Shown in pieces: positions 61,343 through 64,000 of a stretch of 64,000 nt of DNA. Under the pieces are notes generated by a model. That model was not told where the DNA came from. It was given only the letters and a program-made list of their open reading frames with translations, and did no database searches. The DNA comes from a virus: positions 1-64,000 of IMG/VR virus record IMGVR_UViG_3300032046_000014. One strand, given 5' to 3'. Numbering within the stretch: position 1 is the stretch's first letter; each line of letters opens with the position of its first letter. A program made the position numbers and the translations under genes.

Positions 61343-61490
61343 AGAAAAATTAAGAGAACTTCGATTGAGAACAGGCAGACAATGGGCCTGGTACTTCTAT
61401 CAAGAACTTGGTTATCGAATAACTGAAGATTTTGAGCAGGAAGAATCGCTGAAGAAAGCAATAGCCAAAATCCTAGATGGGACATGTTGA
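61335..61490 (+). CDS. 51-aa hypothetical protein (not in ORF track)
   Basis: MNEEKLRELRL...ILDGTC* fills the gap with overlaps. Confidence 0.45.
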   Translation: MNEEKLRELRLRTGRQWAWYFYQELGYRITEDFEQEESLKKAIAKILDGTC

Positions 61491-62374
61491 ATGTTATGAG
61501 TGTTTGGCTAACCGTATCGCCGGAGGATCCGTACCTACAAACAATCGCTGTAGAATTCACTAATTATTGTAATCTGCAGTGTGACCCTTGTTATGGACAA
61601 AATCCGAGACTCTATAAGGCCAGATCTAAAGGTTACATGACACTTGAAAATTTCCGCGTTTTGCTGGAACAATTAAAGAGGCTGCCAAGACTGAGAATTC
61701 TGAACCTCAGCTACAATGGCGAATCATTGCTGCATCCGCAGTTTGAACTGATGGCTCAAGAGGCAAGGGCAGTTCTGCCTAACATGATGATAGGGATTGT
61801 TACAAACGCAACTTTGATTACACGGTCGAAAGCTTTTGCCATTCTTAAGAACTGCAGCAGTATAATTGTCAGCATGCACCATGGCCCTAAGCTTGATGAA
61901 GCCTTAGACGGCCTCGAGACCCTTTCAACTATCAATCAGCAGGCCAAGAACCCGCGCAGCCTATTCGTTAACGTGATGGCTGACGAGTTCAAACATCATG
62001 AAATCATAGCGTTGGCTGATCGAGTGAAGGAAAGGAAGATTGTTGTGCAGTTTAGGCGAGGGTGGCCGATGACGGAAGACTTGAAAAGGCCAATGCAACA
62101 TCCGCAAACTACTACCACATGGACAGATGTTCCCGCGCCTTTTCACTCAGACAAATTCTGTCTGGCGCCCTTCTATTACACGGCGGTCCTCTGGAACGGC
62201 GACACGTTGCCGTGCTGTCACATATTAAACGGCGGCGACTTCAGTTTAGGCAACGTCTTCAACACCAGCCTTCTTGACGTTTGGAACGGCCAAGCCTATG
62301 GAAGACTACGGAACGAAAACTACGAGTCATCATGTCCTTGCGTTGCATGTGAAGTTCGTGAGCTTCCGGTTTAG
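61484..62374 (+). CDS. radical SAM / SPASM-domain protein
   Basis: EFTNYCNLQCDPC, GESLLHP, TNATL, C..PF...WNGD..PCC, LGNV, C..C. Confidence 0.9.
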   Translation: MLNVMSVWLTVSPEDPYLQTIAVEFTNYCNLQCDPCYGQNPRLYKARSKGYMTLENFRVLLEQLKRLPRLRILNLSYNGESLLHPQFELMAQEARAVLPNMMIGIVTNATLITRSKAFAILKNCSSIIVSMHHGPKLDEALDGLETLSTINQQAKNPRSLFVNVMADEFKHHEIIALADRVKERKIVVQFRRGWPMTEDLKRPMQHPQTTTTWTDVPAPFHSDKFCLAPFYYTAVLWNGDTLPCCHILNGGDFSLGNVFNTSLLDVWNGQAYGRLRNENYESSCPCVACEVRELPV

Positions 62375-62511: not shown

Positions 62512-62921
62512 AGGAACTGGAAAAGTTTCATGGGGAAAGACGCCGCTTCCAAGGAGAATTCATACGTTACGGCCAGAAAAGAGGATGGAAACATCCTCTC
62601 ACTACAATAGTTCTCAGAAACGTCATCGACGTCAAGACCGGCAGAATAGTCACGGACCATCTGTGGTTTACGCAGGGCAAGCAGTTCGAACGGCTTTATC
62701 TTGAACCGGGGGACATAGTAAGTTTTACGGCTCGAGTGACAAAGTATCTGAAAGGCTACCAGGGACGAAGAGACGAATATGATGACCGGCCTCCCGTAGA
62801 AATTGATTGTCGCCTCAGTTACCCAGCCAAACTTGAGAAGAAAACTACTGAAACTGCACATAATAGTACAGTACAAAATGGGACCCGAACAACAGTTCTT
62901 ACGCGCTGGACAAGCCCATAA
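62496..62921 (+). CDS. OB-fold-like phage hypothetical protein
   Basis: TDHLWFT...LEPGDIVSFTARV..Y.KGY. Confidence 0.65.
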   Translation: MYRMREELEKFHGERRRFQGEFIRYGQKRGWKHPLTTIVLRNVIDVKTGRIVTDHLWFTQGKQFERLYLEPGDIVSFTARVTKYLKGYQGRRDEYDDRPPVEIDCRLSYPAKLEKKTTETAHNSTVQNGTRTTVLTRWTSP

Positions 62922-62953
62922 AATATAAAAGAAAGCTGAGAATACATACTTCT

Positions 62954-63277
62954 GAGGCTGGTGTCCTTTAGCAGACTAGGCCAAGGCAGCTTCGTTCAAG
63001 CTGCTACGTTCCCGCTCCTAGGCGGGAACTAAGAACCTGCGGCGAAGGAGGTTCAAAGCACCGAGTTTTACGGTGCTAAAAGACCATTTGATCAGGTCTT
63101 GTAAGGCGCTCGGCACCCGAAGACGAAATCGGCTTCATAACCGAGGGTCGTCAGGGAGTCCCAGAGAGCCAGCCAGTTAGGTACCCAAAATTCGCTTTAG
63201 GCACCTAATCAGAGTTTAGGTACCGAACTGGTGTGTCTGGAGAAGGTATGAAGCTTAAGGGCTACAGCCTCCCTGAC
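62954..63277 (+). ncRNA. candidate large structured ncRNA (~320 nt)
   Basis: terminal stem GAGGCTG/CAGCCTC, five consecutive hairpins, TATAAAA about 25-30 nt upstream, no ORF. Confidence 0.65.
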
Positions 63278-63317
63278 TGAACTGAATTGAACTGCCATTG
63301 ACACAACAATGCCATAA

Positions 63318-63442
63318 ACAGGGGTGGTGTAGTCAGGCTATCGCGCTGGGTCCATAAGGCTATGGTCTGGCAAGCCCAGAGATCAGAGGTTCAAAAATGC
63401 ATAAGAAAAGCTTATGTGTTGAAAGTCCTCTCCCCTGTACCA
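63318..63442 (+). tRNA. tRNA-Met(CAT), initiator-like, with two BHB introns (63357..63373 at 37/38; 63396..63425 at 59/60)
   Basis: ACAGGGG/CCCCTGT acceptor (A1:U72), CTGGG/CCCAG anticodon stem, spliced T-loop TTCAAAT, encoded CCA. Confidence 0.8.
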
Positions 63443-63490
63443 CTATTTCATTAAATTGAATTTGCTTATAAGTAGTTCAATTTTATGAAA

Positions 63491-63565
63491 TGGCGGTCTG
63501 TGCGGGAGTTGAACCCGCCTCAGTCGAGTGACAGTCGACCATCCGCACCGGCGGACTTACAAACC
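63491..63565 (-). tRNA. tRNA-Asp(GTC)
   Basis: GTCGA-CTGTCAC-TCGAC arm, GCGGG-TTCAACT-CCCGC, encoded CCA. Confidence 0.85.
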
Positions 63566-63571
63566 TTGATG

Positions 63572-63642
63572 TGCACCCGCCGGGATTTGAACCCGGCCGT
63601 CAGCGTGGAAAGCTGAGATCCTAGCCACTGGACCACGAGTGC
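63572..63642 (-). tRNA. tRNA-Gly(TCC)
   Basis: GCACTCG/CGGGTGC acceptor, TCAGC-TTTCCAC-GCTGA, TTCAAAT. Confidence 0.9.
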
Positions 63643-63654
63643 GATGATCCTGTT

Positions 63655-63816
63655 TGGTGCAGAGGACCGGATTTGAACCGGCGCGTCCGCCTTGCGGAAA
63701 GAGGTTTCTCACAGGCTGAACAGTCGTTCCTAACCGTCCTTAGCTTCGAGCTTACGACTTGAGCTTCGAGCTGGGTCTTAAGCCTCTCGCTTTCAGCCAT
63801 GCTTGGCTACCCCTGC
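63655..63816 (-). tRNA. tRNA-Leu(TAA) with 71-nt intron at 37/38 (63706..63776)
   Basis: AGAGG-CTTAAG^...TGAGAA^A-CCTCT; long variable arm; encoded CCA. Confidence 0.85.
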
Positions 63817-63844
63817 ATTAACGGATGGTACTGATAGATCGTAC

Positions 63845-63920
63845 TGGTGGAAGCTGTGGGATTCGAACCCACGGCCTACTGCTTGCAAAGCAGCTGCTCA
63901 TTCCGCTGAGCTAAGCCCCC
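63845..63920 (-). tRNA. tRNA-Ala(TGC)
   Basis: GGGGGCT/AGCTTCC with G3:U70, TTTGCAA loop, TTCGAAT, encoded CCA. Confidence 0.9.
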
Positions 63921-64000
63921 AACAAAACGGTTCAAGGGTCAAAACAACGTGGATGCAACACCGCTTTACTGGGCGGCCTGCGCTTCAGCGGGATCTTTTT

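Follow-up and report, generated by a model that had tools for sequence, protein, structure and literature searches.

A structured non-coding RNA family outside Rfam 15 carried by viruses and integrated elements of Bathyarchaeia

Positions 62954–63277 on the plus strand of the window, i.e. the whole stretch of 64,000 nt that was analysed, constitute the gene for a stable, highly structured non-coding RNA of 324 nt. The RNA is a member of a new and uncatalogued family that lies outside Rfam 15 and is known from Bathyarchaeia alone, where viruses and integrated elements carry it. The conserved unit is a core of ~210 nt, in which a rod of three helices (P1-P2-P2a) joins the two ends and is combined with invariant junctions and the irregular helices P5 and P6. 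The five tandem hairpins and the long P6 arm seen in the window are lineage-specific expansions, the hairpins belonging to an array of variable number.

The RNA gene and its conserved structure

The original prediction placed a structured RNA with its own TATA box in this region, and both were borne out. The gene limits rest on fold stability, on covariation among homologs and on homology in Logan contigs with unrelated flanks, which starts at 62954 and stops at 63274–63278. By RNAfold the stretch has a minimum free energy of −141.1 kcal/mol, to be compared with −105.6 ± 5.4 in dinucleotide shuffles (n = 100), none of which folds equally well (0/100, z = −6.53), and no open reading frame of at least 40 aa is found within it. 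The predicted 3' end follows from the stop of the homology and leaves a short tail, CCUGAC (63272–63277, plus strand), of which CCU is found after P1 in most members. The RNA is read from the plus strand because it contains invariant G.U pairs (alignment columns 11/366, 248/339 and 252/337).

A TATA-like promoter box, AAAATATAAAAG, is located at 62920–62931 (plus strand) with its centre ~28 nt before G62954, the first nucleotide of the RNA as predicted from the sequence. TATA-like A/T-rich boxes ~25–28 nt upstream of the RNA were counted in the virus of the window and in L169, L166, L179, L173 and L131, the last being a stand-in for the conserved promoter of those loci that have a divergent AbrB gene (AbrB-type loci, described below), where the box reads GGGAAAnTCTTATATG. 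L140 has a weaker box, ~19 nt before the RNA. T-runs are present 3' of the RNA in some members, not in the virus of the window. We infer that the RNA is its own transcription unit, with an archaeal TATA promoter and a start at the first base of P1. A mini-ORF in the RNA, with an SD-like GGAG followed by AUG AAG CUU and further codons, was considered and rejected, as its variation tracks the RNA pairings (columns 15/362 are C-G in 11 members and U-A in 7) and there is no conservation past P1.

The alignment A4 comprises 20 distinct sequences from related elements, namely the virus of the window and 19 homologs, and 51 predicted pairs. Over these pairs 97.6% of the cells are paired, compared with 90.1 ± 0.5 in shuffles. 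Covariation among homologs had been named as a check in the original prediction, and changes on both sides were found in 22 of the 51 pairs, against 10.0 ± 1.9 in shuffles (0/500 reach 22) and 3–7 with slid partners. Most of the compensatory changes sit in P1, P5 and P6, and they bridge a long range, more than 300 nt. About 100 nucleotides are invariant among the 20 sequences, and as much of the core is invariant, the junctions and tertiary pairings are beyond the reach of covariation.

RNAalifold gives a rod of P1 (7 bp), P2 (6 bp) and P2a (3 bp), in which a GU/UA internal loop separates P1 from P2 and one U.G pair of P2 is invariant; next come the junction AGACUAGGC, the tandem hairpin array, the junction GAAAGGCGCUC, P5, P6 and the junction AGAAGGUAUGAA. 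In the window the 5' strands of the rod (62954–62972) are located at 62954–62960 (P1), 62963–62968 (P2) and 62970–62972 (P2a), and the 3' strands (63253–63271) at 63253–63255 (P2a), 63257–63262 (P2) and 63265–63271 (P1), the GU and the UA of the 2x2 internal loop being invariant. The long terminal helix that had been noticed in the sequence is present, with the pairings GAGGCUG/CAGCCUC (P1), GUCCUU/AAGGGC (P2) and AGC/GCU (P2a), and it covaries. Five of the 16 pairs of P1-P2-P2a are changed on both sides and 97.5% of the cells are paired; examples from P1 are GAGGCUG/CAGCCUC, GGGGUUG/CAACCCC, GAGACUG/CAGUCUC and GUGUUUG/CAAACAC.

The rod is followed by the invariant junction AGACUAGGCC (62973–62984), in which GCC (62980–62982) is a candidate partner of GGU (63245–63247). 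This pairing, P7, may form, and the alignment gives a slight hint of it: pair 28/351 is C-G in 19 sequences of A4 and U-A in one (L130, compensatory), and pair 27/352 is G.U in 14 and G-C in 6. The junction GUAAGGCGCUC (63101–63111), with GCGCUC invariant in A4, leads to P5 (63112–63160), an irregular hairpin that reads GGCACCC-GAA-GACGA..UCGUC-A-GGGAGUC in the window and GGCACCC-GAA-GAC...GUC-A-GGGAGUC in the family consensus. It has an invariant 3-nt/1-nt internal loop and the distal loop CUUCAUAA. The P5 helices are 98–100% paired, with both-side changes in 7 of 11 pairs and with 9 such cells at columns 204/228. P6 (63161–63240; CCAGA..GC..GCCAG / CUGGUGUGUCUGG in the window, CCAGU-GA-GC-CA-GCCAUG...CAUGGUGUGACUGG in the consensus) closes the arm that is enlarged in the virus of the window; 8 of its 11 pairs are changed on both sides and 99.5% of the cells are paired. 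The last junction (63241–63252) is invariant in A4. Its apparent invariance is inflated by the 16 loci that were retrieved with the 3' motif, and it is confirmed independently by the virus and by the members found with a 19-mer from the central block. The lengths of the P6 arm and of the P5 tip vary widely between members, and the whole RNA ranges from 212 nt (the L132 form) to 343 nt.

A 9-bp pairing between GTCAGGGAG (63150–63158) and CTCCCTGAC (63269–63277) had been taken to suggest a pseudoknot or a switch. The complementarity is present, but the pseudoknot or switch has no support from covariation: across the 20 homologs the pairing is 73% paired without any compensatory change, and the outer three pairs are unpaired in 9–15 of the 20. 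The part AGGGAG/CUCCCU is kept, through sequence conservation. In L169, the one informative case, compensation is seen in the P5 pair that competes with it (CCU/AGG) and not in the tail.

For the tandem array (62985–63100, plus strand) RNAfold gives exactly the coordinates at which five hairpins of differing sequence had been seen by eye, H1 at 62985–63005, H2 at 63008–63029, H3 at 63033–63054, H4 at 63057–63077 and H5 at 63080–63100. All 20 members have two to five tandem hairpins, spaced by 0–5 nt, in the same slot between the rod and P5; five are found in the virus of the window, L169, L166, L179 and L173, and among these the loops are unconserved. A groundwater variant from Logan, which spans 62882–63274 with 16 substitutions, carries G63082C and C63098G, a compensatory change in H5, and its changes in H2 and H4 preserve the stems. 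In our reading of the viral-type alignment, the stems of H3–H5 also appear to covary or to be kept (GCACC/GGUGC, GUGCC/GGCAC and GAACG/CGUUC).

A type III toxin-antitoxin RNA (ToxI-like) was rejected as an explanation of the array, the five hairpins being different in sequence and no conserved co-directional gene being found downstream. A comparison of the array sequence with five candidate host MAGs gave only scattered matches of 14–22 nt and no repeat arrays. Scattered 14–21-nt matches to hairpin 4 (~63061–63083, E 0.2–3) are located in G009 (C36:17009, C17:131399, C3:13151, C27:130760 and others), outside arrays, and are probably due to chance or low complexity. Two other multi-hairpin non-coding stretches occur in the virus, one from 63921–64000 to ~64075 (minus strand) and one at 67945–68270 of the contig, with stable folds of −46.6 and −112.6 kcal/mol. 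Neither blastn-short nor a covariance model of the 3' half of the RNA (R1) shows paralogy for them, and paralogy with other hairpin-array RNAs of the virus was rejected, since R1 finds a single copy and blastn-short no internal repeat.

Distribution of the family

No match was found in Rfam 15 (4227 families, cmscan, E<=10) for positions 62800–64000 of the window or for the minimal homolog, L132:555–790, in agreement with the original prediction, which could not assign the RNA to a known family. Nineteen further distinct homologs were collected, six of them full-length loci in GTDB MAGs and 13 distinct full-length JGI metagenome contigs, and additional variants are supplied by Logan contigs from four sediment and groundwater runs. 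Among the sequencing runs listed as containing the stretch there is no RNA run. With the 19-mer of the central block, 185,579 species genomes yield six true loci, located in five MAGs of Bathyarchaeia, and the degenerate 3' motif finds nine GTDB loci, all in Bathyarchaeia, and 16 JGI metagenome contigs; a scan of IMG/VR with the latter gave no further contig. The two motif scans are independent, and each motif is confirmed by sequences that were found with the other. More distant Logan contigs match three blocks only, 62954–62990, 63097–63129 and 63229–63278.

Blastn against phage GenBank, related virus records and 20-mer scans of IMG/VR yielded no homolog or chance matches only, and the matches of a 14-mer scan were likewise rejected as chance. 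No description of the RNA was found in the published literature, and in a survey of Bathyarchaeia viruses published in 2024 (PMC10848311) the terms for RNA genes that we looked for are absent.

Each carrier with a name is a MAG of Bathyarchaeia (several bear the label Bathycorpusculum or Bathy-6), and this ties the uncultured 84-kb virus to Bathyarchaeia hosts. BLAST among 301 class-level and 201 family-level Bathyarchaeia samples returned only genomes already known as carriers, and the sole addition from model R1 among 151 class-level Bathyarchaeia genomes, a weak match in G038, is a false positive in AT-rich coding DNA. The family is rare and sporadic in Bathyarchaeia. One genome, G005, holds two elements 1.56 Mb apart with copies that are 92% identical. 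On these sequence grounds the host of the virus is taken to be an archaeon, a member of Bathyarchaeia, and not a bacterium.

Mobile elements, the AbrB cassette and neighbouring tRNA genes

Every locus that could be typed sits on a mobile element, either a viral contig or an integrated element. The window covers bases 1–64000 of an IMG/VR record of 84,303 bp that is ~78% complete (CheckV). The phage-type portal, the prohead protease, the intron-bearing tRNA genes and a G+C content of 47% indicate that this is a tailed virus of an archaeon. L173 and L169 are also of viral type, with protein genes in common with the virus of the window and with a tRNA-Met(CAU) gene nearby. At other loci integrase-like, primase-MCM and associated genes indicate integrated plasmid-like elements. 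Integrase-like proteins belonging to one protein cluster are encoded in six loci (integrase HMM E 5e-13 for L174 and 0.008 for L157; with Pfam PF00589, L174 scores 23.1 bits, under the cut-off of 27.1). L174 further encodes a 1044-aa primase-MCM protein (Pfam) that clusters with proteins of L159 and L170, and a 165-aa ORF is common to three loci. An operon whose 3' end faces the RNA, in convergent orientation, is found in L167, L170 and L174; that of L174 is made up of the 165-aa ORF and then the primase-MCM gene.

In 13 of the 19 other loci a divergent gene for a 49-aa AbrB/SpoVT protein (PF04014) is located 57–126 nt upstream of the RNA; viral-type members are without it. The AbrB protein is present in 24 clusters of a large protein collection and matches an 'antitoxin' PHROG weakly. 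The two genes are separated by a conserved bidirectional promoter region (L131:3986–4060, L134:6660–6722 and equivalents), which has an inverted repeat, ACCTAnTAGTAGGTA, immediately upstream of the TATA box that they share; from its sequence and position the repeat is probably the AbrB operator. L168 has the AbrB-RNA intergenic promoter unit twice in tandem, and in L156 and L157 a ribbon-helix-helix-like ORF, by our own translation, follows the AbrB gene. AbrB homologs with the same promoter layout also exist without the RNA, facing an 80-aa ORF in L192 and a tyrosine integrase (40.8 bits) in L194, indicating that the AbrB cassette is a general divergent regulator, with the RNA among its cargoes. 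Neighbour clustering of the 20 loci reveals no protein that all of them have in common and yields only AbrB, integrase-like and primase-MCM proteins and small proteins of unknown type; the profile scans covered part of the neighbouring ORFs.

The closest viral relative, L003, has flanks ~94% identical to those of the window, and a 339-aa ORF replaces 62893–63318. The RNA is hence a swappable cassette or cargo, as L003 holds a protein gene in the same slot, and this slot is a swap site for accessory cargo. The ORF of L003 (4446–5465, plus strand) has an N-terminal hydrophobic stretch and, by reading, a C-terminal pair of dockerin-like repeats (DxDGKVDMxD). In the window a gene for a radical SAM/SPASM-domain protein (61484–62374, plus strand; SPASM E 2.4e-13) is located 0.6 kb upstream of the RNA and is followed by a 141-aa ORF (phrog_3752).

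The RNA had been described as heading a tRNA locus, a position that proved incidental: tRNA genes near the RNA were found by ARAGORN only in the virus of the window, L169 and L173, all of viral type, and the 13 AbrB-type loci have no tRNA beside the RNA. Within 62954–63277 itself no tRNA or tRNA-like structure is detected by ARAGORN or by the Rfam tRNA model. A tRNA with giant introns was rejected, as by reading a T-arm could not be formed by the 17 nt that precede the P1 3' strand.

Downstream of the RNA, at 63319–63435 (plus strand), is a tRNA-Met(CAU)-like gene that both ARAGORN and Rfam fail to report. By reading, it has the acceptor pair A1:U72, its anticodon stem has three G:C pairs at the foot, CCA is encoded, and there are apparently two introns, one after position 37 and one in the T-loop; L003 keeps this gene with 89–90% identity. 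A tRNA at 63494–63565 (minus strand) is found by Rfam (43.4 bits) and missed by ARAGORN with default settings, and its anticodon loop was read as GUC (Asp). Only with the ARAGORN intron option is a tRNA-Leu(UAA) seen at 63655–63816 (minus strand); its intron has 71 nt. The minus-strand tRNA array, 63492–64111, is absent from the 94%-identical L003. ARAGORN also finds a tRNA-Met(CAU) gene in L169 (389–538, minus strand; intron of 75 nt) and another in L173 (7404–7655, minus strand; intron of 174 nt). Each of these 'introns' holds a T-arm-like sequence, GGGTTCGAATCCCACC and GCCGGTTCAAATCCGGAC, which suggests that nested, split or merged tRNA genes adjoin the RNA in these two viral contigs. A link to initiator tRNA was rejected, as A1:U72 and the three G:C pairs were read only in the virus of the window and the tRNA-Met genes of L169 and L173 are without them.

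Comparison with known RNAs and possible function

The RNA shares features with several known classes. Archaeal RNase P and SRP (7S) RNAs are similar in size and have a terminal helix and conserved 5', central and 3' blocks between variable arms. The absence of RNase P and SRP signatures in the original prediction was upheld, as neither RF00373 (archaeal RNase P RNA) nor RF01857 (archaeal SRP RNA) matches the RNA (E<=10) or the viral contig, and the host MAGs have canonical copies at other loci (RNase P RNA in 3 of 5, 181–197 bits; SRP RNA in 4 of 5, 147–153 bits). In contrast to the single housekeeping RNase P copy per genome, the RNA is absent from almost all sampled Bathyarchaeia. This rarity and the separate RNase P and SRP RNAs of the hosts indicate that it has no housekeeping role. 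That the RNA mimics rRNA, RNase P RNA or SRP RNA of the host was rejected as well, BLAST giving chance 7–10-mers only.

Like the Y RNAs and YrlA, the RNA has ends that pair in a long conserved stem with invariant non-Watson-Crick positions, followed by a variable interior of several hairpins, and some Y RNA-like genes are phage-borne and located near tRNAs. Unlike them, it has no tRNA-like module and no match to Rfam Y_RNA or YrlA. A Y RNA was rejected, as the partner domain PF05731 (TROVE/Ro60) is absent from the five host MAGs, which are incomplete; the positive controls of this search, Deinococcus radiodurans and Bacteroides thetaiotaomicron, were matched. HEARO/omega RNAs (IscB-TnpB) and the IS110 bridge RNA are also structured RNAs of 150–350 nt borne by mobile elements, and some of our loci are near recombinase genes. 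However, the internal loops of the Bathyarchaeia RNA are invariant in sequence and not programmable, there is no Rfam HEARO match, and no IscB, TnpB or IS110-type gene was found beside the RNA among the neighbours scanned with Pfam and PHROGs.

By context, the nearest analogues are ROOL, which is ~580 nt long, and GOLLD. Both are RNAs of phages and prophages that have no partner, form RNA-only cages of unknown function and are 'often near tRNA islands'; many GOLLD members exceed 800 nt, and GOLLD env-38 is located downstream of a Met-tRNA (bioRxiv 10.1101/2024.12.08.627333). The Bathyarchaeia RNA is likewise a stand-alone structured RNA without a partner protein gene, carried by viruses and integrated elements, with a conserved core and divergent regions. 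It differs in its length of 210–340 nt, its archaeal hosts and its lack of a match to Rfam at E<=10, and most of its loci adjoin an AbrB gene and not tRNAs, several being in integrated elements. The mention of ROOL and GOLLD in the original prediction hence stands for the context, but membership is excluded by the covariance models and by the smaller size.

The best explanation, which we put at slightly better than an even chance, is that this is a stable structured non-coding RNA of Bathyarchaeia mobile elements that would act in trans, alone or as the scaffold of an RNP; the proposal is built on analogy and on exclusion. In the integrated elements the divergent 49-aa AbrB-type DNA-binding protein would probably control the RNA promoter, at best a regulatory link. 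Given this control, and the same cassette facing an integrase gene in a relative without the RNA, the RNA would be made when the element is active. The invariant core could then bind a conserved host component or assemble with itself, both with low certainty. As no protein partner encoded by the elements is conserved across the family, the partner would have to be host-encoded, or else the RNA would work alone. Acting in trans, as an RNA or RNP scaffold, it might aid the element during replication, and the hairpins and arms might be tolerated structural expansions, again at low certainty.

Other functions can be imagined. Phages P1 and P7 and the satellite phage P4 have small immunity RNAs that act as regulators of a switch, and the RNA might similarly serve the genetic switch of the element, as a regulator of immunity or copy number or as an antisense RNA, being the first product opposite the AbrB repressor and acting on transcripts of the element or of a rival element. 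The bidirectional promoter region that it has in common with the AbrB gene in 13 of 19 loci fits such a role, as do the same cassette driving the integrase in L194 and the RNA converging on the operon 3' end in L167, L170 and L174. We nevertheless find it unlikely: known antisense and immunity RNAs are far simpler than a core with ~100 invariant nucleotides and irregular helices, neither the AbrB gene nor a conserved neighbouring target accompanies the copies of viral type, and G005 carries its two elements with 92%-identical copies. An anti-defence decoy, mimicking a host RNA (the anticodon stem-loop of a tRNA, or CRISPR-repeat-like hairpins) and soaking up a nuclease or modification enzyme, is quite unlikely. 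By reading, the distal loop of P5 is YUCAUAA, resembling the anticodon-loop sequence of tRNA-Met, in the virus, L166, L179, L173 and L174, and the viral copies adjoin tRNA genes; however, with only five members having the loop it cannot explain the family, a CAU-type loop being absent or different in most. The unconserved loops of the five-hairpin members and the lack of repeat arrays among the scattered matches of the viral hairpins to the host MAGs also speak against a decoy, which would leave the invariant junction core unexplained.

A ribozyme, with a catalytic invariant core (self-processing or acting in trans) and variable hairpins as peripheral stabilisers as in RNase P RNA and group I introns, agrees with the typical ribozyme pattern of an invariant core, a variable periphery and insertion-tolerant arms. 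We hold it to be very unlikely, since at E<=10 the RNA matches none of the known ribozyme families, neither a conserved signature of a cleavage site nor an exon context in the flanks is seen, and P1 joins the two ends, as is the case in stable RNAs that act in trans. That the RNA is the 5' leader or processing scaffold of a tRNA operon, co-transcribed with the downstream intron-bearing tRNA-Met-like gene and with no role of its own, is largely refuted by the family distribution and has become a highly improbable reading. Only 47 nt without a T-run lie between 63271 and the start of the tRNA-like gene near 63319, and in L169 tRNAs adjoin the RNA, but these tRNAs are located upstream and are divided from it by a T-run and a TATA box; moreover, the 13 AbrB-type loci are free of adjacent tRNAs, and L003 keeps the tRNA without the RNA. 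Hardly credible is an element that works as DNA (an origin of replication, for instance, or a site of packaging or attachment), with palindromes that only resemble RNA hairpins. The location between gene modules of mobile elements would suit it, and the L174 copy is near a replication gene with homologs in L159 and L170; against it, the invariant G.U pairs and the G-C to G.U changes work only as plus-strand RNA, the compensatory changes span more than 300 nt, and the promoter is located at a fixed distance.

The trans-acting structured RNA that we prefer can be carried further by analogy, though what follows is doubtful. It may be the first archaeal RNA-only machine of the ROOL/GOLLD kind, enclosing or binding a host component such as a tRNA or the translation apparatus, or else an RNA effector silenced by AbrB. 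If the former is true, Bathyarchaeia would harbour viruses and integrative plasmids that turn on a self-sufficient RNA of compact size without any protein encoded by the element, and if the latter is true, it would constitute a new kind of addiction or conflict module. Very few classes of structured RNA are known from archaeal viruses and plasmids, and the present family is a cassette that tailed viruses and integrative elements exchange. With a minimum of ~210 nt it offers a well-bounded target for structure determination, and for finding which host function archaeal elements manipulate by RNA alone.
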